In this document: positions 29,858-51,500 of the stretch, piece after piece
Layout: each line of letters starts with the position of its first letter
Numbering within the stretch: position 1 is the first letter of the stretch
Assembly: GCA_030614005.1 (NCBI GenBank)
Contig: JAUWKS010000002.1
Coordinates: forward strand, 96,101 to 160,100
Direction: 5' to 3'
Source of the DNA: Candidatus Heimdallarchaeota archaeon
Lineage (GTDB): Archaea; Asgardarchaeota; Heimdallarchaeia; JABLTI01
Length of the DNA: 64,000 nucleotides
Made by a program: the position numbers and the translations under genes
The notes under the pieces: model-generated
What the model was told of the DNA's origin: nothing
Databases searched by the model: none
Seen by the model: the letters and a program-made list of their open reading frames with translations, nothing else

Positions 29858-29975
29858 AGAAATAAATTATAATATTTCAGAAACAATAGAAGTGAATTGA
29901 TTACTAACTATTTTTGAAATAAACTATTGGGTATTAGATATTAACTGTATACAACAACACAATAAAAACAATTCT

Positions 29976-30056
29976 AGCCATCTGCCCGTTACCAGGTTTC
30001 GCTATTGATGTTCTAGCGGTTATTTTTATTCGCTTAAATGTTCGAGAGACGTTCAT
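29976..30056 (-). pseudogene. Truncated Cas7-like gene remnant (N-terminal ~27 codons only)
   Basis: Reverse translation MNVSRTFKRIKITARTSIAKPGNGQMAR matches the N-terminus of 26729-27508 (MFVSRTFKRIKITVRTSIAKPGNGQMAR) with ~85% nucleotide identity, after which the homology ends. An AbrB-like gene lies divergently 124 nt away. Confidence 0.5.
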
Positions 30057-31688: not shown

Positions 31689-33260
31689 TTGACGGTACTC
31701 AATTGGCAAACGGATCCAATTTATTTTGATGTTGAGGATAAACCGGTCAATCAATGGATAAATGCCAATGAGTTAATAGAAAGCAATCATAGAGAAGAGA
31801 TCTTTCTTAATAGCATTAGTATTCTCAATCTGTTTCCTATCCTCGTTCGCAGGGCTGATTTTGTGCGGGAAAACCATTCTGACCGTATCCTTGCCCGTTT
31901 ACCATTTGTGCAGCTAACTGAGGAGGAAAAAGAATTTGTCAGTAATCAAGATCTTCTCGTCGCTGAGAAATTGCGTGATTATTTTTATCAATCGGATAAT
32001 CGTAAGATCCTTGAATGGAGGGATGTTTTGCGAAAGTATCTCGAGCGAGGTGCTGTCCCCCTGCCCTTCTATCGCTGTTTTCCGGAAGACCTCGAACTTA
32101 ATTTCCATGAAAGAATCCTTGAATCCTCTCGAGGGGAAACGTTTGGTATGCCCACTACTTTGACTAATGAATTAGCCTACCTTTGTGGTATGGTCAATGG
32201 TGATGGTAGTCTCACTAAATATGTCCTCAATATCATAGATTATTCCATAGAAAATATTAGACAACTAAAAGAACAGTTCGAGCGATTATTCCGGCAAACT
32301 GGTAGAATTCAGATGCAAACTGAGAACAGCCCTGCTTTAATTATCACTAATCTTTGGGTTGTCCGCTTTTTCTCGTTTCTGACAGATCAACCAATAGGAG
32401 GAAAGAAATATCAAAATCTTAGTGAACCACTCCTTCTCCAAGAACAACCATTCCGTTCCCATTATTGGTCTGGTGTGATGGATGCAGACGGGAGTTATGC
32501 AAATGGAGGAATTTCTTTTACTTCTGCCAGTAAACATTATGCAAAGAAATTCAGTGATTTTCTGGAATCACTGACAATAAAACCAACTTTTTTTGACCGT
32601 CCAGATAACACTTTTCGAGTTTATATTCCTCGAAAGTTCAATTTATTGTATAAGAGCAAAATGTTTAGTTTCCATCCTGAAAAGAGATTAGAATTCCAAA
32701 AGCTGAAAGAAGGAAGAGAGAAAAAAGCTAAAGTAACATATCTATTTCAAGAATTTAATCAAAATACTATGAGAAATAATTATTTTGATTTTAGTTTAAT
32801 GATAGACATACAAGTCACTGGATTAGGAGAGTATCTAAAAGAAACTCGAAATAACTTAACTCAACATGAATTTGCTCAGAAAATAGATGTAAGTACGAAG
32901 ACACTTCAATTGATGGAAAAAAATAGAAGTGCAATTTCCCTTAATACTCTAGAAAAAATTCTGTTAAAGCAAAAAAAATCCTTGATGCAATTTTTAATGT
33001 TCTATGGACGTCAAATCCAATTTAGAAGATTTAGAGCTCCACCAGTGTTTCTTGATTACAGACCATCTAATCAATTGAAATATTTTGCTAAAAAAATGTT
33101 GTTTTTTAAAAATCATATTCGAATTGATAGCAAAGATAAGAAATTGAATTCCCAAATTGAAAATCATTTTGGTATAAAGATAGAAAACAATGTCATTAAC
33201 AATGGGGTTATTAGATACTTTTTCAAAACATTTTGCAATCTTACAAAACAAGAAGACTAG
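31689..33260 (+). CDS. LAGLIDADG-motif protein with C-terminal HTH, paralog 2 (TTG start)
   Basis: 523 aa, collinear with paralog 1 (LAYLCGMVNGDGSL; HYWSGVMDADGSY). The N-terminal third is ~80% identical to paralog 1 at nucleotide level. Confidence 0.6.
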   Translation: MTVLNWQTDPIYFDVEDKPVNQWINANELIESNHREEIFLNSISILNLFPILVRRADFVRENHSDRILARLPFVQLTEEEKEFVSNQDLLVAEKLRDYFYQSDNRKILEWRDVLRKYLERGAVPLPFYRCFPEDLELNFHERILESSRGETFGMPTTLTNELAYLCGMVNGDGSLTKYVLNIIDYSIENIRQLKEQFERLFRQTGRIQMQTENSPALIITNLWVVRFFSFLTDQPIGGKKYQNLSEPLLLQEQPFRSHYWSGVMDADGSYANGGISFTSASKHYAKKFSDFLESLTIKPTFFDRPDNTFRVYIPRKFNLLYKSKMFSFHPEKRLEFQKLKEGREKKAKVTYLFQEFNQNTMRNNYFDFSLMIDIQVTGLGEYLKETRNNLTQHEFAQKIDVSTKTLQLMEKNRSAISLNTLEKILLKQKKSLMQFLMFYGRQIQFRRFRAPPVFLDYRPSNQLKYFAKKMLFFKNHIRIDSKDKKLNSQIENHFGIKIENNVINNGVIRYFFKTFCNLTKQED

Positions 33261-33853: not shown

Positions 33854-34639
33854 ATGTCGGTTAAGAAAAGTCTTATCTTGATGGAGGGGGATAGGTATAG
33901 TTTCGCTGAGTTGAACATCAACGTTAAACTCACTCCTGTTATGGAGGAGGTGCTATGGACTCTCCAAGTGTTGTTTATCCTACTTTTCACATCATCTTTT
34001 ATCAATATAGTAAAATTTCTTTGTCGGTTTTTGAACCGTTCACCTAAAGCTATTGGTTCTACCTTGCAATCCCTTGCAGATCTTGGTCTTATTGACTATT
34101 ATCGTTCTGGTCGCAGTCGAGTGGTCAAACTTCACTTCGAACACCCATTTCTTGCAAGTTCTCTGTTCCGGTTCTTTGGTTTCAATACCTGGTTACTAGA
34201 CCAAAAGAGTGCAATAAGCGAGGGTGACCATCATCTCTTTGGCTTTCTTCCATCAGAGAAGAATGTCCAAAAGTTCTTTGCTTTCCTGCAACTAAAAGAA
34301 CAACAGCTAGATGCTAAGATTGCTGATTATCAAGAGTGGATTGATTGGGTGCTGAAAGTAGAATATACAGTAACTACTGCAAAAGATGTCCTTGTTGAAG
34401 ATTCAGAAGAGACGGCTGAACATCCTATTCATTTGTTCGCTGAGGAGATCGTCTCTCGAATTAAACAAGCAGAAGTTCCTCAAGTAAACCATCTAGACAT
34501 CATAAAACTCACTAATGTTATTCTCTCTGTTTTTGCTGATTATCGAGAGGAACCACCCTGGATTGACGAGGCCTATCTCCGGCAACAAGCTTTTCTGAAA
34601 GGTGACGAACAATTGGAGGGATTGTATGAGAACAAATAA
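33854..34639 (+). CDS. Winged-helix-containing hypothetical protein (first gene of Cas1-like operon)
   Basis: 261 aa with a wH-like segment (KAIGSTLQSLADLGLIDYYRSGRSRVVKL). It overlaps the next gene by 38 nt. Confidence 0.4.
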   Translation: MSVKKSLILMEGDRYSFAELNINVKLTPVMEEVLWTLQVLFILLFTSSFINIVKFLCRFLNRSPKAIGSTLQSLADLGLIDYYRSGRSRVVKLHFEHPFLASSLFRFFGFNTWLLDQKSAISEGDHHLFGFLPSEKNVQKFFAFLQLKEQQLDAKIADYQEWIDWVLKVEYTVTTAKDVLVEDSEETAEHPIHLFAEEIVSRIKQAEVPQVNHLDIIKLTNVILSVFADYREEPPWIDEAYLRQQAFLKGDEQLEGLYENK

Positions 34640-36626
34640 GAACGAGCTCCGTGATTTGGTTGCCTCTTGGGTGGATGCCCTTGATGGTCCTGCTCAAGCT
34701 GTCTCGAGTAAGGAGCTTACTATTCGTTTAGATAAAAGTCATTCTCACATTTGTCAGATTTTACGAACCCTTGCTGTTCAGGGAAGAATTACCTATATCA
34801 ACGGCAAGCGTTCTCTTGACCGTTCTGTTCGACTATATTATAGTGCTGAATGCTCTACTGAAGAAGAAAGTTCATTTTGTAGCCGTCCCACTTGTGGCTC
34901 TTGTCAGTGGTTATCGGAAATCCAGAGATGTATCTTATTGGATCTTGTTTTTGAAAGCAATCCTTCTGTTTTACCACCCGAGTTGAAACTAAGAGCTTAT
35001 GTACAGGAAATACCGCTTAATGCCCCTTGCTGTGATCATTTCGATAAACGAGTTGCAGGGCAAGTAAAGAGCAGACATATGTCTCGTTTTATTCGTGAGA
35101 ATACTGATGGTTCACTCTTTCTTTGTCCAATTGAACGTTGTCGTCAAGTTATCGATGAATTCAGTTTCTACCTTCAAACTATCAATCTTGGTTCTAGTAC
35201 TTTTTATTGTCCTCATTGTGGCAGCCCAATGGTCTTTGGGTATGATGAACGGTTTGATGATTATCGCGTCTTTTACTGGGATAGTCATTTTGATATCCTT
35301 CAGCAGAGCTTTTTCGAGTTAACTGGTACAACACTAACTCGAGAGAAGAAGCAAAAGGATGAAGTAAAGGTTGGTATATCCATCATTAAACCGAACAGTT
35401 TCACTCCTGATACTAAACTAGAGAATTTGTTTATTGGTAGCAAGACCTCTCCGGAAGAATTGGTATTCTCCAAAGATTTGACCTTCTTTCCATTTAGAAA
35501 AATAGGTTATATCTACTCCAAGCATTGGGAAGATTATTTCACACTCAAAGACTCATTGCATCCCATTGATCCTGTAAAAGGACGGAAGCTCTATCAAAAT
35601 ATCGAATTATTTCCTCCTATTGATCCAATAAAAAGTGTTGAACCTATTGCTCGAGAGGTTGGTGGAAATGAATTACTCATTGCTAGTGGTTTTCTTACTT
35701 TCCCATCTTTTCAGGCTAATCTGACCACTCGAGTAGCTTTGATTGAATCGAAAATAAGAGAATTTGTTGATTTGGATCTGAAAGGATTCTTTACTGAATC
35801 TCTTCAGCAAATGAAAGATACTATACGCAGCTACCAACACTTACGTGTTCTAGATCACTTACAATGGCAAAGATATGAAGGAGGAGTTAGTAGTTTAATG
35901 ATCGAAGCTCTTAAGCGCGAAGCACAGAAATATGGCTTTCTTACACCTGCCCGATCGAAATCTCGTATGGTACGTTATGATCGTTTTCTTCCTTTTGGCT
36001 TATATTATGCTCGTTCTGCTTATGATTCTTTAATCAATGGTGTCAATCATGTTATCACAACAATTTTGAAAAAAGACATCTACAATGAAATCTCTCTTGC
36101 GTGGGATGGATTACGTGGTTGGTGTCACAGAAAATACCCTATTGGTCTCTATTTAGATACTATTGAACAGGCGAAAATTATTGCTTGGCTTTGGATCCAT
36201 GAAGCAATACGAGACAGAGAAATTCAACCCAGTGATTTTCAAATCAGACGAGGAAAACGATATGAACTGTATTACTGCGTAATTCCGAATTCGAATCTTC
36301 ATACACTCATCAGAAAGATTGGTTTACAGGCACTGAAAACAACCATTCGCTTAGCAACAGGTGAAAGTATGAGTCTGAAACGAACATATGAGAAATATCT
36401 GAAACAGCAGAAAGAACTCATAAACAAATTTGCTATTCATTCTTCAGAATTATTATGCACTAATTTATCGGAAAATAAGCAAATCACTCTCTGGAAGAAA
36501 TTAGAGCAAACCAAGAATAGAGAACTATTAACCTACCAAGAACTACAACAATTACATTCATTCTCTCAAGAGTTCTTTACTAACGAGTTTTCTTTCGAAC
36601 CTTTGGCAATAGTTGAGGTGTGTTAG
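34602..36626 (+). CDS. Winged-helix + Zn-finger + Cas1-like integrase-fold fusion protein
   Basis: 674 aa. There is an N-terminal wH (HICQILRTLAVQGRITYINGKRSLDRSVRLYY), then several Cys pairs (CSRPTCGSC; CCDH; CPIERC; CPHCG). The C-terminal ~250 aa align to Cas1 core motifs. These are MIEALKREAQKYGF (E-site, cf. EGxAAR.YF), SLINGVNHVITTIL (cf. NALLSFGYTLL), ISLAWDGLRGWCH (cf. GLDPYLGFFH catalytic His) and LYLDTIEQAKIIAWLWIHEAIRDREIQPSDF (cf. LALDLMEEFRP..LVL.LLNRRELTADDF, catalytic Asp). Alignment was done by eye. Confidence 0.5.
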   Translation: MTNNWRDCMRTNKNELRDLVASWVDALDGPAQAVSSKELTIRLDKSHSHICQILRTLAVQGRITYINGKRSLDRSVRLYYSAECSTEEESSFCSRPTCGSCQWLSEIQRCILLDLVFESNPSVLPPELKLRAYVQEIPLNAPCCDHFDKRVAGQVKSRHMSRFIRENTDGSLFLCPIERCRQVIDEFSFYLQTINLGSSTFYCPHCGSPMVFGYDERFDDYRVFYWDSHFDILQQSFFELTGTTLTREKKQKDEVKVGISIIKPNSFTPDTKLENLFIGSKTSPEELVFSKDLTFFPFRKIGYIYSKHWEDYFTLKDSLHPIDPVKGRKLYQNIELFPPIDPIKSVEPIAREVGGNELLIASGFLTFPSFQANLTTRVALIESKIREFVDLDLKGFFTESLQQMKDTIRSYQHLRVLDHLQWQRYEGGVSSLMIEALKREAQKYGFLTPARSKSRMVRYDRFLPFGLYYARSAYDSLINGVNHVITTILKKDIYNEISLAWDGLRGWCHRKYPIGLYLDTIEQAKIIAWLWIHEAIRDREIQPSDFQIRRGKRYELYYCVIPNSNLHTLIRKIGLQALKTTIRLATGESMSLKRTYEKYLKQQKELINKFAIHSSELLCTNLSENKQITLWKKLEQTKNRELLTYQELQQLHSFSQEFFTNEFSFEPLAIVEVC

Positions 36627-37338
36627 TGGAGAAAGGAATATGAGCAATACAACTATAGAAATAGAGAATCCCCTGCAAAATTTGCATGAGAAGATCATTT
36701 ATCTGATTCAAAACAAGGACTTCAAAATAACAAAAGAAAAAAATCAAAGAATTCTAAGTGAAGCTATCAAGAAAATTGCTCAAAATGGATTTTTAAGAAC
36801 ACATGCTTTTCTTCACAATTGGTTGAGAGAATTTTTCGAAGAAGGAGAACTAACGAGTAAAAGCTTACTGAATATACGCTCTTCACTTCCTTGGTCCTGG
36901 GATCAGACCAAGAAGTATTTTGATGCACTTGAAAGAAATAAGGTATTGATTTACTCTCGAGACTCCATTGGGAAAAAGATTTGTACTCTCACTATTACAG
37001 ACCATTTGGGAGAGGGTGTAAATAGTATTCCAACCCAAGAGCTTCGGTTATTCTATTATCTAAAGTATCAGAAAAACATACCAACAGATGAATTTGCTAA
37101 TCTAAAATCGAGAATTGGAAATTACTATTCAAAACTAGAGAATTTTGAACAAATGAAATCAAAAGTAGAGAAAGAAAAAGAGAAATTTCAATCCACTGAG
37201 ATGAATCATATAAAATTGCTTGCAGAAGAAATTGCTACCTTTTATTGGCACAATAGAACAAAGAAGGGAATAGTCAATGATATAGAAGAAATGTTAGTGG
37301 AAAGACCAACAACCATCTTTTCTTTGGAATACAGGTAG
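36613..37338 (+). CDS. Hypothetical protein (possible winged-helix), third gene of operon
   Basis: 241 aa; overlaps its upstream neighbour by 14 nt and the downstream gene by 1 nt, so it is operonic. No recognisable Cas2 features. Confidence 0.4.
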   Translation: MRCVSGERNMSNTTIEIENPLQNLHEKIIYLIQNKDFKITKEKNQRILSEAIKKIAQNGFLRTHAFLHNWLREFFEEGELTSKSLLNIRSSLPWSWDQTKKYFDALERNKVLIYSRDSIGKKICTLTITDHLGEGVNSIPTQELRLFYYLKYQKNIPTDEFANLKSRIGNYYSKLENFEQMKSKVEKEKEKFQSTEMNHIKLLAEEIATFYWHNRTKKGIVNDIEEMLVERPTTIFSLEYR

Positions 37339-38096
37339 TGAGAGTTATGGTTGTACTTGACTATGAAATAAATTTGAGTAAAACAGAATACTTGTATTAT
37401 CTTGAGTGCCCACAAAAATTCCGTATACATCGAATACTAAATCCAATTCCATATAAGACAACTTTCATGAATACAAAAAGAAGCACTTCTAGTTATGTTC
37501 TGCGTAATTATGATGAAGAAAATTTGAATGGAATATTCAAACATTCATTCTTTGAAACGTTTCATAAAAAATATTGGAATAGAATCACTGAACCAGAAAC
37601 ACCAAAAGAAATTGCTAGCAATCAAATAAAATTATTCTATTGGTTGTATCAACAAAGAAAATATTTCGAAGATTCTGATTACTGGATACCTGTTCAAACA
37701 GAATTACGATTAATGACAGAAAGACAGAGAGGGATAATCGATTGTGTGGAATTGTGTAAGAATAAAAATGGATTAAGAATAATTGACTATAAATCTGAAC
37801 CACATCAAAGTGATATGCTAGCACTGATATTCTATGCAAACTTGTTTAACACCTTTAGAGCTGAAGACAAGGAATATGATGAATACTTGTATGATGTTGT
37901 AGAGATTGGTTGTTATTATTATATATCAGGAATTGAGAGAATCTTTGAATTAAAAGTAGATAATCTATTATCTTTTCAAGAAATTTTCCAACGGATACTC
38001 ACTGAGATTTCCCAAGAGAAATTTCCATTAATCGAAACTTCTTGTTGGAATTGTAAATTAATAGATGTTTGTAAAATTGAGAAAAGAAGAAGGTAA
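37338..38096 (+). CDS. Cas4-like PD-(D/E)XK nuclease with 4-Cys Fe-S cluster signature
   Basis: 252 aa with an N-terminal Cys (YYLECPQKF). RecB-type motifs GIIDCVEL...RIIDYKSE follow (hhhD..E ... hhDhK). A C-terminal CWNCKLIDVC supplies the remaining three Cys, matching the Cas4/AddB C-x(n)-CxxCx5C arrangement. Confidence 0.5.
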   Translation: MRVMVVLDYEINLSKTEYLYYLECPQKFRIHRILNPIPYKTTFMNTKRSTSSYVLRNYDEENLNGIFKHSFFETFHKKYWNRITEPETPKEIASNQIKLFYWLYQQRKYFEDSDYWIPVQTELRLMTERQRGIIDCVELCKNKNGLRIIDYKSEPHQSDMLALIFYANLFNTFRAEDKEYDEYLYDVVEIGCYYYISGIERIFELKVDNLLSFQEIFQRILTEISQEKFPLIETSCWNCKLIDVCKIEKRRR

Positions 38097-38427
38097 TATA
38101 ATATAGACTCAAAATCTTCAATATAGTAAATATTTATACTAGTTATGTTCTTCGTAAGGAAAAATAATTTATTCAAAAAATTTCAATATTTTTCTTATAA
38201 TAAACCATATAAAAACGAAATTATTGATGACTTGCTTAAATACAATCTCTCATTTGAAAGAACAAGACGGAAAATTAGGTGTAATTGCTATAATTTTAGG
38301 TGAGGATATGCATCTAACGCCAGGCTATTTCTATAGCACAATGTTCTTTGAGTTTCCTTCTAGAATATGGAGAAATGTTGATTTATTAATTCGATTTATT
38401 AAACGAAGAATTGAACGATAGGATTTA

Positions 38428-41400
38428 ATGTTTATCAATTTAAAAAAAATGAAAATTTATATAGACGAAAATTATATCTTATTTAACTTGGAATCATCTA
38501 AACAAGAGAAGGATAATATCAAAATGGGAATTCATTTATTTTGTGGAAATGCTTCTGACAGAGAGCATGAATGGGAACAATTAGTAGAAATCTGTGAAAC
38601 TATTCATCAAGGATATGATGAAGATAAAGAAATTTACCTACTATATAATTTTGAATTACCTAATCAATGTCAAATTGATCTTTTAATAATACAAGAAAAA
38701 GGCATCAGTATTCTGGAATTTAAAAAACACAAGGGAGTGATTATTGGGAAAGATGATGAAGGAACAGAGTGGTTTGTAATAACTGATAATGGAAATACCC
38801 CACTAAGAAGGAATCTCTTTGAGCAAATTAAGAGAGAACGTAGAGAAGTAACAAAGAAATTATTTGAAATCAAAAGAAAATTACACCTCCAAATGAAACC
38901 AAAAAATCTTGGCAAAGTTTATGCATGGGGTTATTTCCCAAAAGAGAGTGAATACGATAAGTCTCAAGTTTCAGATGAAAATAAACTCTGGTTTGATGTT
39001 ATTACTAGTAATTCACTACTAAAAAAATTGCGTTATGTAAACACAGATTATAAATTATCTAGTCAGAACATGAAGGACATTACAGATAGATTTGAATTAG
39101 AACCTTACTCTGGATTTGATACAAGATTGTATTTTATATCATCTGAAGTCGTTGATAAAAAATGGAATACTAATTATCTGAAAATTGCGAATGATTTCCT
39201 TCAAAATGAGCTAGAGAAAAAATCAACTCTAATCTACTCTATTGGTTTAGGAGAACCAGTATCTTATACACCAATTAAAGTAGCATTCCAAGTTGCTATG
39301 AACCAACACGGTGATAAGGCCGTTGACCTTGATATCAATTTTATACTTAGAGAATTAACAAAAAAATTAGATGATGAAGAAAAATTCAAACCAATCCTAA
39401 TAACATCCGAAGGAGGTTCAGGTAAAACTTCACTATCAAGACAATTATTCTTGAAGACATCCAAAAAATTCATGCGAGGAAATCTAGATTATCTCCCCTT
39501 TCTTGTACAGCTATCTAATTATGGTTCATCGAAGTTAAATTTTAAGGAATGGATTCAAAATCTAGTGAGTGAACTGGAATTATTTGGTAAAAATTCTAGT
39601 GCAATTTTTAGGCATATGTATAGAAATGGAATGCTCCTTTTTCTTGTTGATGGATTAGATAATTTACCTCAAGATCAAAGAAATGAACTTAATCATTGGC
39701 TAATTGAAACACGAAAGTTTGGGAATAGATTGTTTATTACTTCTAGACCTTATGTTGAACCCACTTCTGAGCTGAAGGTCGAAAGATTGACTATTTTACC
39801 ATTAACATTAGAAATAATAGAAAATTTTATTGAAAACAGACAAAAGAACAAGAAATTGCTTAAGACGATTCTTCATAAAATAAATTCAAATTATAACCCC
39901 TTACTATTTAATCCATTCTATCTTGATCTTATTGCTTCACTAGATCCAGAGGAATTTCCTGACGATGAAATCTCATTATTTGATAAATGGTTAATTGGAA
40001 TAGAACATAAAGAGAGTTATTTAAAGGAAAATATAAGCGCTGTAGAGAAGCTTGCTTTTGAATATTGTTTTCCAGAGAGTAACGCATTTTCAAGGGATGA
40101 AATAAAAAGTAAAACTGATGATAATGATATTTTTAGACCATTAGAGAGAGCTGGTTGGATAATGCCAACTAATTCTTATTTACATAATAAATTCGTTTTT
40201 ACTCATGATAGGTTGAAAGAATATCTAGCAGGGAGATTTGTATGGAACAATTGGGAGAAATCAAAGAATGAGATATATCTAAAGGAAAATAGTTTACTAC
40301 ATTTCCTCGAATCCAATAAAATTTTTGAATATGCTTTCCTTTTTGGAAAGCATTTACATGAAGAAGAGAAGATTGCAGAAAGAATTACCGATATAATTGG
40401 TGAAGTTGAGTCTCTAAGTGGTGATGTTGGAACTGTTGTTTTACGAGCACCATTTTTAGGTTTCTATCTAGCAGGTTGTATGGGACTAAAAAATAAAACA
40501 TGGTATTTAACTATTGAGAAATTTATCAAAGATAGCTGGTTTGACATAATTGAAGACCTAATTGGTAACAAACCAAGAACCACATATCTTCGCTATATTT
40601 TCAAGAGTGTTTGTTTAGCTATGTTACATATCAAACCTTGGACAACTATTCTACCTAAAGGAATGAAGAAATTATACACTAAGAGTTCATTAAAAAAGAT
40701 GGATAAAGAAATTGAACCAGAAAATAAAATCACTCCTTTCAAACAATGGTTGTTGATAGCAAATTCAGTTAAGGATATTCAATCAGAAGTTTTCCATAAT
40801 TTTGTTAGAACAGGTTATGAACTAGCTTGTACAAAAGAAAATGAAACGGAATTCTTTAGAACATTGAACAAATTACAATTTTCTCCTAACTATAAGACTT
40901 ATGCAAATCATTTTGTTAGCGATTTTGAAACAGAATTAGGTAAGTGGTATGCAGCAGCTAAGATTTACATCAATTACTATCCTGAAGAACTAAAATCATT
41001 TTTTATTAGTTGGACAATTTCAGAAGATACTATTTCTTTAAGAAATTCAATTGATCGTTGTGAATATCTATCAAATTACAAAGATCTATTTAGCGACATA
41101 GTTGCACAAGTAATGTATAGTTGGCTAAATGCACATGATTCTGAAATTCGAATTTTAGCTATTAACATGCTTGTTCGGAATCATTCAAATTTGAGTTTCG
41201 ATCTCGATGAACGCCTTTCTGAATTGCTAGATGAAAAGGATTATGATAAATGGCTAGATGTATCCAAGAAAAGATTCCACACTGAATGGGAAAAGGATTC
41301 CATAAAAAATTTGAGATTGTGGATTTATAGAAAACATGCTTTAGAAGAAGTATACCAAATTTTTAGACATAAATTTCGATTATTATATCTGGAAATTTAC

Positions 41401-43671
41401 GAGTATTACAAGGAATCTTTAGAATTAAATGATGCTATTTTTTTAGCCAATCATGTTCCACATTTTGATGAATGGAAAGGACCTGTTATTGAAACTCTTG
41501 AAGAGATGAACTCCAGATTTAATTCCATAGAGATTTCTCAAATAATAGAAGACACCAAATTTAATTTATTAAGTTTAGATGAAATACATTATTATTTGAA
41601 AGAATTTGATACATTGGATGAGTATAAAAGATCAAATATTGTTGATAAATTAGTATATTTTCAAAAATTGGAAAAAAAAGAGGTTTATCCGTTTCTGGAG
41701 TATATTGTTAGAAATAATTCCTCTGGTGCTCAGCTTGTTTTTACACAGCTTATTAAAGACAAGAACTACCCCATTGAGAAAAAGCATCAGCTATTAGACA
41801 ATGCTATGAAGGATAGTGACTGGGTGTCATTTTATAACTTTATGAATGGCATTTTTCTAAATAACCCCTCTATTCTGAAAGTTGAAAGGTATCTAGAGTT
41901 TTTGCTTAAAAGTGAATATCCGGTTTTCAGATTTCTAGGTGTAAATGCATTATTCTTCTCTGAAAATACTTTACAAGAAAAACGGCTAGATGGAATTTTA
42001 GCCAAAGAGGAGAATCCAAATGTAATTGCTGCAGCTATTAGAATTAAAGCACTAAGTGGAGGATTAAATTTCGATAATGTTATTAATTTCTTTAATTGGA
42101 AATTTCAATTCAAAAGAATGTATATGAAAGAAATTAATATTGGTGCTACAAGAGATATTGAACTTACAGTTATCTCCACACCAATGAATGAAGATCTTAA
42201 ATTTGAAATAAAGAATAGAATGTATTCCTTTGGAATTGCCACTAATCATTTTACTTCTTTTCTGCAGACATTGCATACAAAATACGGATACAAAAAGAGT
42301 AAAATGTATCCCTTTGATATAATTAAAAAACTTAGACAAAAAGAGAATTTGAAAGATATTGAATTTGAAATACCAAATTGGTTAATCATTGGATTAAAAA
42401 ACAAATATGAACCTCTAATTAGAGCATCATTGGTATACTTGATTGCATATTTAATGGAAATAAAATCGATAAATGTAAATACTATTGTTGAGCTCATCAA
42501 ACCATTAGATGAACACGATGATAAAGAAATAAAAGCATATAGTAAATTTCTTCTATCATTGTATCAAGAAGGTTATTTCCTTAATTGTTTAAATGAAATA
42601 TCCGAATTCACAAATATAGAACAATTAGCTCTCATATGGTCAATTTCACTAAATACAGATTTTAGTGTTCATAGAAAAATTTTCAAAATACTACCTTCAC
42701 TATCTGAACGTATAAGAGAGTTATATTTCTCTTTTATACCTCAAACCAATGAGTTATTCTATTTATACTTAGAGGAAATTACAAAAAATCCAACAGTTGC
42801 TTATCCAGAGTATGTCTCACAATTTGAAAAACATAAATGGGGATTCTCACCAAGAAAGGAGTATATTCCTGGGAGAGATGTTCTATTCACTTGGAATTAC
42901 GTTTTTGCAGATTCAATTATTTGGACTCACATAAAGAAATCTCTTAATATAAACCCAAATGATAAACCATATCCTGAAGATATAATTGATAAATCAATGA
43001 ATTGGTTATCAAAATTGAATACTCAACCATTTGATATTTTGGGTACAAAAATATATCAAATTATCGAAGAAATGTTAGATTCAAAAGATTCAATTATTTG
43101 TTCCCTTGGAATATTATTATCATCCATGACTAAAAAATTTCCAAAAAATTTCTCATCAAAGATAAATAATGAAAGCTGGGTTAAAGCTAATATTTATTCT
43201 TTATTGATGTTATTTGATGATTTACCACTCGATAATTCTTTAAAGATTATTCAAATTGGTTTGAAATCAAATCATCCAATAAATGTCTATTTGGCATTAA
43301 AGTGTATAAAATTAGAATTTGGATTCAAAAAAGTAATCGAATTATTGGATAAGAAGCTATTACAATTTGGCTTGCACAATGATCTATATTATCATGATAA
43401 TCGAATCAAAATCATTGAAGCTATTCGTTTATTCTGGAAGGAGAATTGTAATCAATTACTGAAAGAAGATTTTGATTTTGTAATGAAATGGGCTGCTGAG
43501 ACAAATAGAATCATTTGGTTATCATGGGAACAAATTCAACGTAATACTTTGTTTGATATTCTAAATTGGTCTCTTGAAAATGAAGAGAACCAAAACTTGT
43601 ATTGGACTATTACCCATGTTTTATTTAGCAGAATTTGGTTCTCAAAAGGACTGCCTTGGAATAAAAGATGA
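38428..43671 (+). CDS. NERD-domain + STAND (NACHT-like) NTPase with long C-terminal helical-repeat region (Avs-like antiviral ATPase candidate)
   Basis: 1747 aa. The N-terminus matches NERD (CQIDLLIIQEKGISILEFKKHKGVIIGKDDEGTEW). Walker A ILITSEGGSGKTSL and Walker B LLFLVDGLDNL are present. The remaining ~1200 aa are helical-repeat-like. Confidence 0.6.
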   Translation: MFINLKKMKIYIDENYILFNLESSKQEKDNIKMGIHLFCGNASDREHEWEQLVEICETIHQGYDEDKEIYLLYNFELPNQCQIDLLIIQEKGISILEFKKHKGVIIGKDDEGTEWFVITDNGNTPLRRNLFEQIKRERREVTKKLFEIKRKLHLQMKPKNLGKVYAWGYFPKESEYDKSQVSDENKLWFDVITSNSLLKKLRYVNTDYKLSSQNMKDITDRFELEPYSGFDTRLYFISSEVVDKKWNTNYLKIANDFLQNELEKKSTLIYSIGLGEPVSYTPIKVAFQVAMNQHGDKAVDLDINFILRELTKKLDDEEKFKPILITSEGGSGKTSLSRQLFLKTSKKFMRGNLDYLPFLVQLSNYGSSKLNFKEWIQNLVSELELFGKNSSAIFRHMYRNGMLLFLVDGLDNLPQDQRNELNHWLIETRKFGNRLFITSRPYVEPTSELKVERLTILPLTLEIIENFIENRQKNKKLLKTILHKINSNYNPLLFNPFYLDLIASLDPEEFPDDEISLFDKWLIGIEHKESYLKENISAVEKLAFEYCFPESNAFSRDEIKSKTDDNDIFRPLERAGWIMPTNSYLHNKFVFTHDRLKEYLAGRFVWNNWEKSKNEIYLKENSLLHFLESNKIFEYAFLFGKHLHEEEKIAERITDIIGEVESLSGDVGTVVLRAPFLGFYLAGCMGLKNKTWYLTIEKFIKDSWFDIIEDLIGNKPRTTYLRYIFKSVCLAMLHIKPWTTILPKGMKKLYTKSSLKKMDKEIEPENKITPFKQWLLIANSVKDIQSEVFHNFVRTGYELACTKENETEFFRTLNKLQFSPNYKTYANHFVSDFETELGKWYAAAKIYINYYPEELKSFFISWTISEDTISLRNSIDRCEYLSNYKDLFSDIVAQVMYSWLNAHDSEIRILAINMLVRNHSNLSFDLDERLSELLDEKDYDKWLDVSKKRFHTEWEKDSIKNLRLWIYRKHALEEVYQIFRHKFRLLYLEIYEYYKESLELNDAIFLANHVPHFDEWKGPVIETLEEMNSRFNSIEISQIIEDTKFNLLSLDEIHYYLKEFDTLDEYKRSNIVDKLVYFQKLEKKEVYPFLEYIVRNNSSGAQLVFTQLIKDKNYPIEKKHQLLDNAMKDSDWVSFYNFMNGIFLNNPSILKVERYLEFLLKSEYPVFRFLGVNALFFSENTLQEKRLDGILAKEENPNVIAAAIRIKALSGGLNFDNVINFFNWKFQFKRMYMKEINIGATRDIELTVISTPMNEDLKFEIKNRMYSFGIATNHFTSFLQTLHTKYGYKKSKMYPFDIIKKLRQKENLKDIEFEIPNWLIIGLKNKYEPLIRASLVYLIAYLMEIKSINVNTIVELIKPLDEHDDKEIKAYSKFLLSLYQEGYFLNCLNEISEFTNIEQLALIWSISLNTDFSVHRKIFKILPSLSERIRELYFSFIPQTNELFYLYLEEITKNPTVAYPEYVSQFEKHKWGFSPRKEYIPGRDVLFTWNYVFADSIIWTHIKKSLNINPNDKPYPEDIIDKSMNWLSKLNTQPFDILGTKIYQIIEEMLDSKDSIICSLGILLSSMTKKFPKNFSSKINNESWVKANIYSLLMLFDDLPLDNSLKIIQIGLKSNHPINVYLALKCIKLEFGFKKVIELLDKKLLQFGLHNDLYYHDNRIKIIEAIRLFWKENCNQLLKEDFDFVMKWAAETNRIIWLSWEQIQRNTLFDILNWSLENEENQNLYWTITHVLFSRIWFSKGLPWNKR

Positions 43672-44832: not shown

Positions 44833-46473
44833 TTATCCATCACCAGTCACCACAACAAGTCCAGAGGATTTGTTGCAGCTCATCTCTGAGCCCCCACTAG
44901 GAATAGTTGAGTGGAGGGTTCCCGAGTCCATGTAGGGCACGGGGCTAGTGTCTTTAAGACTTTTAATTTTAACATAATCTATGAAGCTTGCACGATAAAT
45001 GTTCACAGAAGCATTATAGTCTCTGTCTGCAGTGAAACCGCATTCGGGGCAGTGGAAGAAGCGACCACATTTGTTCTCTAACAGATTGTTTGGTCCTTTC
45101 ACTTTCAAGCCTTTTGCGCTGCATCTTGAGCAGTGACTGGAAGTATTCCAAGGACAAACTTTCACAAGTGTTAGCCCTTTTTGTCGGCACTTGTAGTCTA
45201 GGAGGAAGACTATTCTTCCTCTTAGCCAGTAGCTTAATTTTCTTGACCAGGATCTCTTTCCACGAGGAGGTTTGTAATCTCGCAGGTCTTCGATAGCGAT
45301 TTTTGTGCACTGCCATTTTTGGGCAATTTCTATGAGCTTGTTTGTTGTATAATGAGCCAATTCTTCTCCTAAGCGATTTCTTTTTTGGTAGAGCTTGCTT
45401 CTCTCTTCTTCTCTTCGAGCGACTTTTATTTGCTTGCTTGGTCTTTTCTTTTTCTGCTTGGATAGTTGTCGTTGTATGCCGGCAATATGCCCATATAGTC
45501 TTTCTATGTGCCTGTATTGTCCACCGATCATATTGATGAAAATTGGCTTGGAAATTTGTTTTCCATCCTCACAAACCACACATGTAGCCACTTTTTTCAA
45601 ACCAGGATCTACTGCAAGCACTCGCTCTTTTCCTTCTTTTGGTATCGTTTCTCCTGGGTATTCCCATGGAAACTGTAAGAAGAAGTATTCGAGCCCTGCT
45701 TTCAAGTTCTTGGTTCGCAAAGTAGGTTTTAATGGTTGAGGATATATTGCTTGTGCGATTTTTTCTTCTATTTTTTCGGGCACGAACAGTGTTTGTTCTA
45801 TCCAAACCCAATCGCTTCTCTTTTTTGGTTCCAAACTTGTTGGTAGCTTTATCTCTAGATTGATGGTTTGTTTTTCTACAGTATATTTTATTGCTTGGTC
45901 ATCATCTGGTGCGTAAGGGAAAGTGTATCGTTTTATTTTTGGTTTCACAAAGTCTGTGTAAATGAAATTAGAAAATGCCTCTCCGAGTCTTTGGTGCAAA
46001 TTCTTTATCATTTCTATTGTTTGCTCGATCATGACTTTCTTGTATCGGTAGTAAGTTTTTTCACCATTCTTTGCGGTATTTCTGCAGTGCTGTCTTACCA
46101 CTGAAACCAATTTTTGTTCTGTTGTTTGTATCCCTAACCACTCGACTATTTGGATGCAATCATAGTAACAGCTCATGCGCTTATGTTGTCCTCTAATTAT
46201 TCGTCCTACCCATTCTGTTACTCCTCTTAGTACCCTGGAGGGAAGATATACTCCTTCTGTTTTCGCTTGTGCTTCGTTGATTGCTTTGTATGCATTGAGT
46301 TTGCTTTCACCTATCCTTGTTATCCATTCTTCTGACCATATTTTATCGAGGAGGTCTTGAGCAGTTTTTGTCGTTAACTCTTTGAACCAGTTTAATCTTT
46401 CATCTTGTGTCATTTTGAATTGGTAGCTATTGATTGGATTATTTTTGTTTCTCTTTTTCTTGTTGGAGGACAT
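44833..46473 (-). CDS. tnpB: TnpB-like RuvC/Zn-finger nuclease (IS200/IS605 family OrfB, IS1341-type; OMEGA effector)
   Basis: 546 aa with RuvC-I (LAVDPGLKKVAT), RuvC-II (IAIEDL) and the C-terminal Zn finger plus RuvC-III (CSRCSAKG...FHCPECGFTADRDYNASVNIYRA). No tnpA is adjacent, and no CRISPR array was seen. Confidence 0.75.
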   Translation of the reverse strand: MSSNKKKRNKNNPINSYQFKMTQDERLNWFKELTTKTAQDLLDKIWSEEWITRIGESKLNAYKAINEAQAKTEGVYLPSRVLRGVTEWVGRIIRGQHKRMSCYYDCIQIVEWLGIQTTEQKLVSVVRQHCRNTAKNGEKTYYRYKKVMIEQTIEMIKNLHQRLGEAFSNFIYTDFVKPKIKRYTFPYAPDDDQAIKYTVEKQTINLEIKLPTSLEPKKRSDWVWIEQTLFVPEKIEEKIAQAIYPQPLKPTLRTKNLKAGLEYFFLQFPWEYPGETIPKEGKERVLAVDPGLKKVATCVVCEDGKQISKPIFINMIGGQYRHIERLYGHIAGIQRQLSKQKKKRPSKQIKVARREEERSKLYQKRNRLGEELAHYTTNKLIEIAQKWQCTKIAIEDLRDYKPPRGKRSWSRKLSYWLRGRIVFLLDYKCRQKGLTLVKVCPWNTSSHCSRCSAKGLKVKGPNNLLENKCGRFFHCPECGFTADRDYNASVNIYRASFIDYVKIKSLKDTSPVPYMDSGTLHSTIPSGGSEMSCNKSSGLVVVTGDG

Positions 46474-46644
46474 TTTTTCTTCGCGTTTACTGTTGTTTAG
46501 CTAGATATAATTAAATTCTCTAAGGAGATTACCGAAAGTATTAGAGATTTGTTTAAAAGAATAGTTGAACGAATAGCTAAACGTACAGCTTTTCTAAGAG
46601 GTATTTAATAAAGGAAGTGGGAATAACCTTCTAGGAGAACAGCT

Positions 46645-48273
46645 ATGCAAGACTTTCTCAATTGGCGAACGGATCCATTACTAGTGGATATTGAACCTGC
46701 CAGACCTAACCAATGGTTCACAGCAAATGAGTTAATAGAGGGAGATAGAAGAGATTCATTCATAACACCGGAAAATCAATTGCTTCTTTATCCAATCATG
46801 ATCCGAAAAAACGATTTCATAACCGGGGAACGAATCTTGCAATCGTTTCCATATATTCTATTAGACACTAGAATAATTTCCAAATGTCGTAAACAATCTC
46901 TTGCATTAGCAGAAAAAACCCATTATTATTTTCAAGGCTCTAATTATAATCATTCTATTCGTGATTGGCAGAAAAAGTTCATCAGTTATTTAGAAGAACA
47001 ACAACGCCTGCCTTTTCCTCTATTTCGACTTTATGATGATTGGTTAGATTATATAAAAGAGAAAAAATTTGCTCGATTCCAATCTGCTCGAGGAGAGAAT
47101 TTTCAATTACCACTTTATCTTTCCGAGGACTTGGCTTATCTTTCCGGTGTGGTTATGGGTGATGGTCATCTGGCGGAATATTTTGTTAATATCATTGATT
47201 CTTCAAAAGAGCACATTCTAAATTTAAAAGAAAAGCTTGAAGAGCAATTCAATTCCAAAACGGAATTTTTCAAACAACCAAACGCTAAAGCTTGGAATGT
47301 CAATATTCTAGGTAAATGGATCGTTCGCTTCTTTAACTTTATTTTATCACAACCAATTAAAGAGAGAAAATATCCTGCTCTTAGAGAACCATTTATTTTT
47401 CGAGAGAATGAGTATTTTCGCAGTAGGTTTTGGTCAGGATTGATGGATGCAGATGGTACCTATAAAAGAGTTATTGGATTTAGTTCTGCATCCAAACAAC
47501 TTCGATCTGACTTTTCTAATTACTTAGATGAAAACAATATAAAACATCGATTTTATGAGTATAGTGTTTTTGGTGGAACTACTTTTAGTATAACTATTGC
47601 AGGTCATTCAAGAAAGCCATTTGCTCAACAAATAGGTTCAAATCATCCAGATAAACAACAAGAACTGCAGTTACTATTACAGAAAAAAGTCTATCGATTT
47701 TCACCTCGAATTACTACTCTCAGAAAAAAAAACTCATGGAACGAGCAAGTTCAAGACTTTTCTAAAGATGCAATCCTTGATGGTTTTTTTAATCTTTCAT
47801 TAATTACCACTCTACAAATTTTAGATTTAGGTAGTGATATAAAATCACTGCGAAAAAAGCACAAGGAAAAACAAAAAGAATTAGCTTCATATTTAGAGAT
47901 TACCCCTAGTTTACTTTCAAAATATGAATTAAATAAAACAGCACTTCCAATTTATATTCTTAAAAAGATACTTTCAAAATACAATGTTTCATTTAATCAC
48001 TTTTTTTCTCAATTAAGTAATTTAATTTTCCGTTCTACAAGTTCTAGTTGTCAGTTTCCATTAAAACCAGAAGAAAGGTTATTGACTTTAATTAGAGGAT
48101 TACAAATTATGCCAGAAAATTATTTTCGAGTTATAGGATTGAGAGAAGTGTCAATTGAACATTATAAGAAAGAAATTAGTGATTATTTTAAAATTAATGA
48201 ACCTATAACAGATGTTTTTCATAACGCTTGTTTAGTTGAATTGATTCGATCATTTTGCTTAATCCGAAATTAA
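46645..48273 (+). CDS. LAGLIDADG-motif protein with C-terminal HTH, paralog 3 (more divergent)
   Basis: 542 aa with LAYLSGVVMGDGHL and RFWSGLMDADGTY motifs and a C-terminal HTH-like region. The N-terminus MQDFLNWRTDPLLVD parallels MTVLNWQNDPIYFD of paralogs 1/2. Confidence 0.55.
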   Translation: MQDFLNWRTDPLLVDIEPARPNQWFTANELIEGDRRDSFITPENQLLLYPIMIRKNDFITGERILQSFPYILLDTRIISKCRKQSLALAEKTHYYFQGSNYNHSIRDWQKKFISYLEEQQRLPFPLFRLYDDWLDYIKEKKFARFQSARGENFQLPLYLSEDLAYLSGVVMGDGHLAEYFVNIIDSSKEHILNLKEKLEEQFNSKTEFFKQPNAKAWNVNILGKWIVRFFNFILSQPIKERKYPALREPFIFRENEYFRSRFWSGLMDADGTYKRVIGFSSASKQLRSDFSNYLDENNIKHRFYEYSVFGGTTFSITIAGHSRKPFAQQIGSNHPDKQQELQLLLQKKVYRFSPRITTLRKKNSWNEQVQDFSKDAILDGFFNLSLITTLQILDLGSDIKSLRKKHKEKQKELASYLEITPSLLSKYELNKTALPIYILKKILSKYNVSFNHFFSQLSNLIFRSTSSSCQFPLKPEERLLTLIRGLQIMPENYFRVIGLREVSIEHYKKEISDYFKINEPITDVFHNACLVELIRSFCLIRN

Positions 48274-48593: not shown

Positions 48594-51500
48594 ATGAGTA
48601 AAGCTGTTTCTTCCACAAAAAAACTTCCTCTTTGTCTTTCTATGGGTGTGACAGAGGTGCTAGAAGGAAGGGAGAGCATAACAGGTAAAGACCTTCTAGA
48701 TTATTTTTCTTTACAGGATAAAACATCTTTTCTTACTAACACGAAAAATTTTGTTCTTGTTTGTGGAAATAAACAGAGACCAAATGACTATGAGCCTAAC
48801 AAATTCCTCGGCTCTTTTGGTGTTCGAAGAGCACTAGCAATGAAGAATTACACTCGATTGCCTGTAATTATTGTTACCAATAACCGTTTTGAAACTTCTA
48901 TGCTTATTGAGCAGTTTAATAAACTAACTTCTTGTTTCAAACTATACACATCAAAGAAAAGTCAAAGAGAAAATATTAATGAAGAAATTAAAGCGGACTA
49001 CCCGAATGAAGCAGACTTTATACTGACAACATATAGCTCTTTCTGGGATCAAACAACAAACAAGGATGATCCATCTTCAGAACAAATTATCTTAATCAAT
49101 CCATTAAGACTAAAATATATCATCGAGGATGTAGGCAAATTAGATGTCATTTTTGGCTGTATACATAGGCATAAGCGAATAAGACCGAATTATTCCTTCA
49201 TTCTTGATGAAGCACACTACCCAATTCTATCAAAGAAAGATTATCAATTCTTATTTAAAGCAGGCAATAGTCTTTTCTTTAGATGCAAAGAGAGAATGCT
49301 TTTAGAATATAATAATCCATTCAGAGAAGCTATTTCTCACCTAACTAGTGATCAATTCCAGCTATTTATTTTCACAGATCTTTTTAGGGGAAGAAAACTG
49401 ATAAAAGAACTGGTTAAAGAGTTCAAATCAACTTTTACTTATAAAATGTACCTCTACAGTAATGGTATTTTTCCAACAATTGATGAAAAATTGCCTTCAA
49501 AAGAACTTCTTAAAGAAAAGAATAGGCTTGATAAGAAAGTTTTAAGTGGAATTGTAAAACAAATACATTTATTCACAAAAGGAAGCAACACCAAAACGAT
49601 AACAGGAAAAGTAACTTACAGCGATTTTGATTTTAACGTTGGCCTCAGTAAACAAGAGATATCTCGAACGTATTCCTGGGATAAACCAAAAGAAGCAGCA
49701 AGATTCCTTCCGGTAGTCACTAAGGAAGAAGGAAGATTCAAACTTAGCGCTCTAGGAGAAGAAATATTTGGTGTGTCATCATGGTTTAGTGGTGTTGAGG
49801 ACAATTTTAGCGAACTTTTAGCTCACTTTTCTAGGATCCTTTACAAAAACAAGAAGGAAAACCACAAATTTTCCGTGAAAGAGATAATCATTTTTTATCT
49901 TCAAATGATAGATTGCAATTATGAAACAGTGAAAAGATTTGAGGAGGCAATTCCTGAAAAGTTAGACACAGAAAAAAAGAATGACCAAATGATCGCAATC
50001 CTTGAAAAGAAATTCAAGCCACTAGTTAAAAATTTCAAAAGAGTTTCAGCAAAAAAAATCCTTGGTGCTTTTGAAAAATTAATGAATACTGAAGCATACA
50101 TTTTCTATCAACAATTCAAGAATTATAAGAAAGAAGAGAAACGTTCCTGGGAAGAGAGAAGGAGAAAAGCGGTCCTAAGAAAAGCAAATTATCAGCCCTT
50201 AGCTGTGAAATTCACAGGTGATTATTATCACATGTTTTGGCAAGACGCCAAGAAGTTATTGGAAGAATTAGTTGAAGAAGGGCGACTTGTCAGGATTATT
50301 TCTTACAATGGTAGAGGAAAACCGATACTAAAGTACCTTACTCAAGAATTACTGGATGCGAACCCTCATTTCCAAAAGAATTGCGGGAACTGTCAATGGT
50401 ACAATCAACGCTTCAAAACATGCACCTTTTTACGTTTAAAACAAGCGAAAAACCCGAGTACAATGACAAAAGAAGAATTTGAATATGCTAATGATACACT
50501 AAGATTTGAAGCAACTGCTTGTGAGAAGTACATAGAAAAAGATGATTTTCAGTCGATGGAAGGCAATGTTAAGTTCACTGCTACCGTTGAGAAGTTAACT
50601 AAAGATATGAAGAATATATCAATGAGCTTTTTATCAGGAGATATTGCAGAGTACAAGTATCATTGTCTTTCTTGCCAGGAACAAATAGAAGAATTTGGTA
50701 CAGGTGATAGAATCTTCTTTCCAAGGAGAAGAATTATTTGTCCTAACTGTTCGACAGTTTATCTTCAACTAAAAGATCGGAAAAAAGTAAAAGTGAAAAT
50801 GGAGGAAAGAGATCATCAAAGAAGCTTATACTTCAAAGAAACTGGGACCATTACTGACGTTTTGAGGAAGAAAGATTCTGCTCGTGTTTTTGTCATACAT
50901 GACATAGATAGTGCTAGATTAAGAATCAACGAAGAAAATGATGAGCCACCTTATTTTCTAGTGATAGGTAAAAATGAAATAGCTCTGGATTTGGTGCAGT
51001 TTGTCTATTTTTCAGGTATACGTCATCAAGAATTAGAAGAAACAATGTGGTTACTAGCGGACCTTGATTCTGAAAGATACAAATACAAAATTAAGCGAAC
51101 AGAACAAAAGTCAAAGAAGAAAAAAGCAAAAAGTCGATATAAAAGACCCTTTTCAGCTGAAGACTATTCCAATATCATAAAAATAATCAAAAAAAGCTCC
51201 GATAAAGAAATATTCAACCATCAATTTTTGGAAGCAAGGCTTATCTCAAATATTGCTGGAATGTTATCAATAAAATATGAAATAGAAATGGAAAGCTTCT
51301 CTGACTGGCATTACAATCACCAATTGTTGGAAATGGTTGATTTGCATATGAAAGTAATTGGCGGAGAAGTAAAGTCAAGCTATTATGGAACTCAATTAGA
51401 AGCACTTAGCAACAAGCACTTTTTTGACTTTTTGAAGGGAGAAGCTGCGAGAGTAGGTCTCTGGTCAAAAGGGCGAGTGAATAGCAGGCTAGTGATAGAT

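Follow-up and report, generated by a model that had tools for sequence, protein, structure and literature searches.

Proteins in which a restriction endonuclease (REase) is joined to a NACHT-type NTPase and a C-terminal repeat array, HEAT sensors included, are an already known kind of system in bacteria. REase-NACHT proteins defend against phage, and mutation of the REase active site abolishes the toxicity of a hyperactive mutant in the winged-helix histidine (10.1101/2022.07.19.500537). Similarly, work on conflict systems treats the NERD domain as an effector with endoDNase activity (PMC10853773), and the domain is listed among the effector domains of STAND NTPases (supplement of 10.64898/2026.01.04.697583), while systems of the NLR type have already been catalogued and counted in Asgard genomes (PMC11291487). 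The present study concerns one gene within a stretch of 64,000 nucleotides (the window) from a Candidatus Heimdallarchaeota archaeon (positions 96,101 to 160,100 of contig JAUWKS010000002.1, assembly GCA_030614005.1). We propose that this gene probably encodes a single-protein, NLR-like immune sensor, that is, a STAND protein of the NACHT clade, in which a nuclease of the NERD family precedes the NTPase and a long HEAT-like arm follows it. The initial annotation of this DNA regarded such proteins as rarely described in Asgard archaea, which overstates their rarity in view of the published catalogue and of the listing of NERD as a STAND effector. A paper describing the particular NERD-NACHT-HEAT family was not found in the literature.

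The initial interpretation as a nuclease joined to a STAND ATPase and a repeat sensor is supported as essentially right, and the three-part architecture was confirmed by independent tools. The features of the gene are as follows, with residues numbered here and throughout in the 1747-aa (amino acid) frame:

38428 to 43671, + strand: longest open reading frame (ORF), 1747 codons plus stop, uninterrupted, with an ATG start
38506 to 38513, + strand: Shine-Dalgarno-like motif GAGAAGGA, 10 nt 5' of the ATG at 38524, putative function
38524 to 43671, + strand: probable true coding sequence (CDS), Met33 to stop, 1715 aa, at the start of all 8 full-length homologues
38524 to 39120, + strand: N-terminal NERD module, aa 33-231, a PD-(D/E)XK core with a conserved beta/alpha extension, a shuffled cassette
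38569 to 38724, + strand: predicted catalytic residues E48 (38569-71), D84 (38677-79), E97 (38716-18) and K99 (38722-24), from the family alignment
39394 to 39789, + strand: NACHT nucleotide-binding domain, aa 323-454, by Pfam match
39406 to 39429, + strand: Walker A (P-loop) SEGGSGKT, aa 327-334, with G330, G332 and K333 invariant in the family
39634 to 39660, + strand: Walker B LLFLVDGLD, aa 403-411, with D408, G409 and D411 invariant in the family
39739 to 39750, + strand: TSRP, aa 438-441 (ITSRP, aa 437-441), the NACHT sensor-1 region, with R440 and P441 invariant in the family
40192 to 40239, + strand: winged-helix motif FVFTHDRLKEYLAGRF, aa 589-604, of the NLR type FxHxxxxE[YF]xA, with the nucleotide-sensing His593
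40255 to 43668, + strand: C-terminal all-alpha HEAT-like solenoid, aa 610-1747, the presumed sensor (AlphaFold2 model and Foldseek)
41914 to 42063, + strand: clearest HEAT pair, aa 1163-1212, EYPVFRFLGVNALFF ... NPNVIAAAIRIKALSGG, by sequence match to P0080

At the N-terminus, the NERD domain named in the initial annotation was recovered by Pfam (PF08378, aa 66-148) with 40 bits against a gathering cut-off of 22.1 when the whole protein was scanned, and with 43 bits when the N-terminal segment was scanned alone. Residues E48 and D84 and the pair E97-x-K99 are invariant in 9/9 family members, and conservation at the positions equivalent to E48, D84 and K99 is at least 90% across 57 distant proteins that carry the NERD module. 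The conserved unit exceeds the Pfam model by about 80 aa, which include WGYF.KGS (WGYF..GS...) and WFDVIT, and homologues align to positions 1 to about 199 of the module profile as one block. Judged from its sequence, the module is a NERD-family PD-(D/E)XK REase with an intact predicted catalytic site.

The adjoining NTPase region, taken as a whole as aa ~300-609, matched Pfam NACHT (PF05729) with 33.4 bits against a cut-off of 26.7 in the whole protein and with 36 bits when aa 288-609 were scanned alone, and both the Walker A (GGSGKT) and the Walker B (LLFLVDGLD) that had been annotated in a NACHT-type P-loop are present. The arginine and proline of TSRP are at least 90% conserved in outgroup NACHT proteins, and the winged-helix motif is kept in P0002, P0011, P0012, P0047 and P0080. 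Motifs of the TSRP type and the winged-helix histidine are said to have been recognised as NACHT-defining by Koonin and Aravind in 2000. The full-protein sequence search against the PDB gave no match, and an N-terminal profile reached just E=0.07 to NLRC4; significance needed a broader NACHT profile. The latter (A5, the NACHT region together with the nearest outgroup NACHT proteins) matched NLRC4 with E=2e-12 across NBD, HD1 and WHD, including FxH...QEYxA, where the consensus 'YsFtHrSlqEYFaA' aligned to NLRC4 'YKFFHKSFQEYTAG'; NLRP3 followed with about 1e-7 and NOD2 with 2e-4, and NB-ARC came far behind at 3e-3. The STAND/NACHT match on which the initial assignment hung was found both by Pfam, above its cut-off, and in the comparison to NLRC4. 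An N-terminal AlphaFold model built from 7 sequences was poor (pLDDT 45.5), and its top fold matches, NLRC4, NLRP7, NAIP5 and NOD2, are taken as corroboration only. By profile comparison, the NTPase is a NACHT-clade STAND whose closest solved relatives are NACHT proteins and not AP-ATPase, Avs or AAA+ proteins.

The remainder of the protein had been annotated as about 1200 aa of helical repeats, with TPR among the options. The AlphaFold2 model of the C-terminal 1138 aa, built from 5 sequences, contains 66 helices and no strands of at least three residues, so that the helical part of this description stood; pLDDT averages 57.8 over the model and is 63-92 in a confident core (aa ~837-1212). Foldseek returned 47 PDB matches at E<=1e-3 for this model, and all of those listed are HEAT solenoids, among them PP2A-A, karyopherin-beta, SF3B1, mTOR and CAND1, at TM-scores of 0.12-0.35. 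Pfam recognised no repeat family, HEAT included, on C-terminal segments of the window protein even at E<=10, and a TPR identity of the repeats is therefore not supported. The clearest HEAT pair, aa 1163-1212, corresponds by sequence to aa 1200-1253 of P0080, where Pfam HEAT scored 35.5 against a cut-off of 23.5 and HEAT_2 34.8 against 27.7. The model, the fold search and this one homologue together indicate that the C-terminal repeats are HEAT-like rather than TPR. Comparison of the window protein with P0002, the one full-length relative of its own subtype, yields 58-64% identity for the NERD, NACHT and HD/WHD parts and 28-30% for the C-terminus. Thus, the C-terminus is the fastest-diverging part of the protein, at about twice the rate of the rest, a pattern expected for a ligand-binding surface in an arms race. 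As a separate observation, the C-terminal profile weakly matched the SAM/PNT domain of Fli-1 in the PDB (E=0.0065) at aa ~949-1020 (41272-41480). Several short helices make up this stretch in the model (pLDDT of about 74-92), and the match could reflect either a SAM-like domain inserted in the solenoid or mere chance.

The ORF was found exactly where the initial annotation had placed it, on the + strand with an ATG start, and its 1747-aa product is identical to the protein P0001 from an NCBI assembly. With stops making up about 7.5% of random codons at the base composition of the window, 1747 stop-free codons would be expected by chance with P ~1e-59. The annotated extent holds for the longest frame and not for the likely start of translation: since all eight full-length relatives begin at the residue aligned to Met33, with MGIHLFCG as their first residues (8/8), and GAGAAGGA precedes this ATG by 10 nt, translation probably starts at 38524, which would give a CDS of 38524-43671 and a protein of 1715 aa. 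The gene of the closest homologue, in L001, begins at the equivalent of Met33 with an AAGGGA motif in front. The STAND gene is solitary, with a gap of 330 nt on its 5' side and a convergent ORF for a small membrane protein on its 3' side, and its GC content is 0.292 as compared to 0.337 in the rest of the window. Most of the 5' gap is occupied by a 65-aa ORF (38224-38421, + strand), which has no similarity to the genes adjoining the homologues and may not be a gene.

Among the described systems, the bNACHT proteins (Kibby et al. 2023; 10.1101/2022.07.19.500537), and in particular the REase-NACHT protein bNACHT25, are laid out in the same way, with an REase-fold effector at the N-terminus, NACHT in the centre and a repeat sensor at the C-terminus. 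The sensors described for bNACHT proteins include HEAT, the NACHT hallmark motifs are the same, including the winged-helix histidine, and bNACHT proteins are likewise single-gene systems in defence islands, as are the homologues in L001, L002, L004, L010 and L013. The window protein differs in being archaeal, in its effector of the NERD family, in its very long HEAT arm of about 1140 aa and in matching no PADLOC model. With Avs1-4 (Gao et al. 2020 and 2022) and the later Avs families (10.64898/2026.01.04.697583) it has in common the fusion of an effector to a STAND NTPase with a large helical sensor, as well as the exchange of N-terminal effectors on a conserved sensor chassis; activation through binding of a viral protein followed by oligomerisation is presumed for the window protein by analogy. 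In contrast to Avs proteins, its NTPase belongs to the NACHT clade, its sensor matches HEAT solenoids, the 50 PDB fold matches listed for each of the two models include no Avs structure, and no PADLOC Avs/AVAST model was matched at E<=1. PADLOC-DB 2.0.0 includes models for Avs. As none of these matches, the window protein does not belong to any named Avs family; the designation as an Avs-like antiviral ATPase in the initial annotation can be kept for the architecture but not for family membership, and an antiviral function would follow by analogy. Animal NLRs (NLRC4, NAIP, NLRP3, NOD2) provide the closest solved structures for the NTPase module in both profile and fold searches, although, with few structures of prokaryotic NACHT proteins in the PDB, closest solved does not mean closest relative. 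Walker A, Walker B, TSRP and the FxHxxxQEYxA winged-helix motif are common to both, whereas the sensor of the window protein is HEAT-like instead of LRR, its predicted output is a nuclease instead of a CARD/PYD adaptor, and sequence identity is just 14-19%. NERD-domain proteins (PF08378) were reportedly described by Grynberg and Godzik in 2004. Such proteins, including fusions of NERD to UvrD helicases and NERD-DndF, have in common with the window protein the REase fold, the intact E...D...ExK site and the position as N-terminal module of NTPase conflict proteins; in the window protein, however, NERD is fused to NACHT-HEAT and not to a helicase or DndF, and carries the extra conserved extension of about 80 aa.

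Eight full-length relatives were found among the 5.8 billion clustered proteins searched. Just one of them, P0002, belongs to the subtype of the window protein (37% identical over 92% of the query), and the other seven form a subtype of ~1530 aa. Exhaustive HMMER searching of 1.84 billion cluster representatives added few full-span members (P0013, P0018 and, in part, P0047), a word-index search with the N-terminal alignment yielded just 3 new proteins, and the same search with the C-terminal alignment recovered only the query itself. The family is very small, about 10-15 proteins. All members or chassis relatives with a named organism are from Candidatus Heimdallarchaeota, and scanning of 185,579 species-representative genomes returned two paralogues in one Heimdallarchaeota metagenome-assembled genome (MAG) and nothing else.

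The NERD module, in contrast to the full architecture, is found more widely: 105 proteins from the exhaustive search match just the ~200-aa module, at their own N-termini, and NERD was confirmed in 57/57 of those module-only partner proteins that have at least 400 aa. The partners in this set comprise UvrD-type helicases (UvrD_C_2, 11), nSTAND3 NTPases (8), TPR arrays (8), AAA ATPases (5), TBP-TOTE conflict-system domains (5), AAA_16 (5) and ATPase_2 (5). Conversely, the chassis occurs with a different N-terminus: a non-NERD region of about 240-300 aa precedes the window-type chassis in P0080 (1488 aa) and in P0011 together with the next ORF, and a non-NERD N-terminus likewise heads the 1530-aa-type chassis in P0030 (1771 aa). 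Between the window protein and the 1530-aa subtype the NERD modules are 45% identical and the NACHT modules just 20-23%, whereas NACHT and the proximal C-terminal region of the window protein (aa 257-823) are 43% identical to P0011, which lacks NERD. These identities bear out that the NERD cassette has been shuffled. A swappable N-terminal enzyme, a conserved switch and a fast-diverging C-terminal arm are the signature of immune receptors built of effector, switch and sensor. Broken copies were also observed. P0010 and P0012 resemble a split copy on one contig, and in L011 a Heimdallarchaeota copy of the chassis is divided by a single in-frame TAA (10377-10386) into ORFs of 792 aa and 960 aa, in both the NCBI MAG and the Logan assembly; the latter could represent a pseudogene, a split gene or an assembly error shared by the two.

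Most of the homologues examined sit in defence-type neighbourhoods with restriction-modification (R-M), PLD-nuclease, Nmad and helicase genes. L001 carries a type I R-M system and a TPR-CHAT protein, then a PDDEXK_4 gene; L002 an MmeI-like methyltransferase, an SNF2-PLD protein and Nmad2, Nmad3 and PLD genes; L004 a type ISP R-M enzyme, Nmad3 and a helicase with a metallophosphatase; and L010 PDDEXK_4, PLD and Nmad3 genes, while in L013 an SNF2-PLD protein is encoded near the homologue. L014, a short contig, has no recognisable defence genes. No neighbour gene is conserved across all the homologue loci compared, and thus the STAND gene would act alone. PDDEXK_4, PLD and Nmad3 genes recur among the loci, and a protein of 149-189 aa is encoded directly 5' of the NERD-NACHT gene in the 1530-aa subfamily, not adjoining the gene in the window; all of these were rejected as operon partners, as none is adjacent in all loci or beside the window gene. 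The small proteins of 149-189 aa, which have no Pfam match, are encoded at 27782-28231 in the window, 5325-5828 in L001, 9408-9977 in L002 and 9316-9885 in L004.

What is observed in favour of an immune sensor is the identity of the domains, their intact motifs, the solenoid of helices, the shuffled NERD cassette, the fast divergence of the C-terminus and the defence neighbourhoods of most homologues; ligand binding, oligomerisation, a DNA substrate and an antiviral outcome are suggested by analogy to Avs and bNACHT proteins. It might be hypothesized that, at rest, NACHT holds ADP via the P-loop and the winged-helix His593, the protein being monomeric and the NERD nuclease inactive. The HEAT-like solenoid of ~1140 aa would then bind a ligand derived from a virus or mobile element, most likely a protein. 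Binding would lift autoinhibition, and nucleotide exchange would drive oligomerisation of NACHT. The PD-(D/E)XK domains of the oligomerised NERD modules would come together and cleave DNA, which would stop the invader or kill the infected cell (abortive infection).

Several points weigh against this proposal. The window protein matched no PADLOC or NCBIfam defence model, and its PADLOC matches were weak and confined to the N-terminus (PDC-M16A, E=0.0034; PglW, E=0.023). The region following Walker B reads DGLDN, as compared to DGYDE in the 1530-aa subfamily, and the window protein is therefore without the second acidic residue after the Walker B aspartate. Overall confidence is low in both structure models (pLDDT 45.5 and 57.8), whose fold matches have low TM-scores of 0.11-0.35, and the small number of family members does not permit analyses of covariation or selection. 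At locus L009, few neighbours can be recognised as defence genes. Finally, the presence of the NERD module on UvrD helicases could indicate a role in DNA processing and not that of a suicide effector.

This last point leads to the view that NERD is a DNA-recognition or DNA-processing module and that the whole protein surveys or repairs DNA in an NTP-dependent way, the HEAT arm serving as its scaffold; in variants of this view, the protein might directly restrict foreign DNA in the manner of a restriction enzyme, or might process the ends of DNA. UvrD-type helicases are indeed the commonest partners of the module (UvrD_C_2 in 11/57, plus AAA_30 and UvrD-helicase), the weak match to PglW of BREX maps to the N-terminus, and R-M systems are frequent neighbours of the homologues. 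However, the module is likewise found at the head of nSTAND3, TPR and TOTE conflict proteins, Pfam identified no DNA-binding or helicase domain in the window protein, and the NACHT-HEAT chassis exists without a nuclease in P0080, P0011 and P0030, so that the nuclease appears as an exchangeable output and not as the core function. We consider a role in DNA processing unlikely. Alternatively, the gene might be cargo or a weapon of a mobile element, tied for example to the adjacent TnpB and LAGLIDADG genes and acting in addiction or in competition between elements. TnpB and a LAGLIDADG-HTH gene lie 3' of the STAND gene, the same pair recurs in L011 with a conserved intergenic stretch of 112 nt, and the GC content of the gene is below that of the rest of the window. 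Yet TnpB is missing at most of the homologue loci, no terminal or flanking repeats bracket the STAND gene, and defence genes commonly travel on or beside mobile elements without serving them, all of which makes service to such an element quite improbable.

The STAND NTPases also comprise non-immune regulators, AfsR being the subject of a 2026 preprint, and a MalT- or AfsR-like protein that converts an intracellular cue into a housekeeping response would fit a locus such as L009, which is poor in recognisable defence genes. A regulatory function of this kind is nevertheless highly improbable: Pfam identified neither an HTH nor another transcriptional output domain, a regulator would hardly be expected to have an intact nuclease site as its output, the family occurs patchily and in one lineage only, the paralogues lie in variable islands, the GC content of 0.292 stands against 0.337 in the surroundings, and most neighbours of the homologues are defence-type genes. 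It might finally be asked whether the gene is a decaying or inactive relic that happens to have kept its frame, in view of the sister copy in L011 that is broken by an in-frame TAA into pieces of 792 aa and 960 aa, of P0010 and P0012, which look like a split copy on one contig, and of a Walker B that lacks the second acidic residue. An open frame of 5.2 kb in DNA of 29% GC cannot persist unselected, however (chance about 1e-59), and the catalytic and NTPase motif residues are all retained, so that decay has the slimmest of chances. An NLR-like immune sensor is the reading we prefer.

With respect to its surroundings, the STAND gene had been annotated as lying between a Cas1-like operon and a TnpB gene. 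The latter was confirmed:

44833 to 46473, - strand: TnpB, 3' of the STAND gene

On the 5' side lies a cluster of four genes (33854-38096) with products of 261, 674, 241 and 252 aa, the last of which is a PDDEXK_1 protein with a Cas4-like fold. The 674-aa protein gave a weak PADLOC match to Cas1 (E=5e-4, 17.6 bits, aa 488-602); Pfam, NCBIfam and PDB provided no support for Cas1, and the label of the upstream gene as Cas1-like, for which this PADLOC match was the sole hit, is unsubstantiated. On the 3' side, TnpB is followed by the LAGLIDADG-HTH gene and by a large helicase-MZB-metallophosphatase gene pair. The order of TnpB (- strand) and a LAGLIDADG gene (+ strand) 3' of a STAND gene is seen both in the window (44833-46616) and in L011 (14416-16035), and the intergenic stretch of 112 nt (46505-46616 in the window) is 76% identical to 15926-16035 of L011, whereas the two TnpB proteins are just 26% identical. 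The window encodes three paralogous proteins of ~520-540 aa with LAGLIDADG_3 and HTH_3 domains (28283-29857, 31689-33260 and 46645-48273); the two that were compared are 34% identical, the first two genes have DNA blocks in common that are 73-78% identical, and the LAGLIDADG homologue beside the related STAND gene in L011 is 33-46% identical. A search for element boundaries around the STAND gene revealed no noteworthy flanking direct or inverted repeats.

The large pair at 48594-55914 encodes a 1392-aa protein without a Pfam family and, after it, a 1058-aa protein with DEAD helicase, MZB (DUF1998) and metallophosphatase domains, which matched PADLOC SngC at 1.8e-16. Homologues of the 1392-aa protein, the helicase and the phosphatase occur in a five-gene cluster beside P0003 (L004, 17018-24100), and the pair is possibly an undescribed defence system. 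Farther out, the window encodes two Csm3-like RAMP proteins (26729-27508 and 60474-61418, both on the - strand), and a stretch of 78 nt (27413-27490) recurs, 88% identical, at 29973-30050. The gene for a family B DNA polymerase (13875-16643, - strand) is followed by five ORFs of 436-535 aa (17368-25311, + strand), three of which carry NosD or right-handed beta-helix domains. No CRISPR or noteworthy tandem arrays, tRNA genes or Rfam matches were found in the window.

The chassis without a nuclease has a setting of its own. Both in L013 (5448-11169, P0080) and in L011 (8001-14379, P0011 and the following ORF) the next gene, on the same strand, encodes a radical-SAM protein. The two radical-SAM proteins are 56% identical, and their best NCBIfam matches are MoaA and prokaryotic viperin, each below cut-off. 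The nuclease-free chassis and the radical-SAM gene may constitute a two-gene STAND system. It might even be speculated, tentatively and with some doubt, that the NACHT-HEAT chassis is an immune platform indifferent to its output, which is a NERD nuclease fused in cis in the window protein, and in sister genomes an unannotated non-NERD N-terminal domain together with a radical-SAM gene. Should this N-terminal domain recruit the radical-SAM enzyme or activate it, the result would be a nucleotide-modifying defence under the control of a STAND protein, and, if true, NLR-like sensing would be tied to chemistry of the viperin kind in the lineage of archaea that is closest to eukaryotes.

Receptors of the NLR type are central to the immunity of animals, plants and fungi, and their prokaryotic roots are under debate. 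The gene described here exemplifies a nuclease-NACHT-HEAT receptor with a complete set of motifs. All of its relatives with a named organism are from Heimdallarchaeota, the archaeal group closest to eukaryotes, and its natural variants mark the nuclease as the swappable output and the HEAT arm as the fast-evolving part. This makes it a candidate for asking whether archaeal NLR-like proteins sense viral proteins in the manner of bacterial Avs and bNACHT proteins, and also what the viruses of Asgard archaea expose to such sensors. The general picture of STAND immunity is left unchanged by these findings; it is extended to a new lineage and to a new combination of domains.

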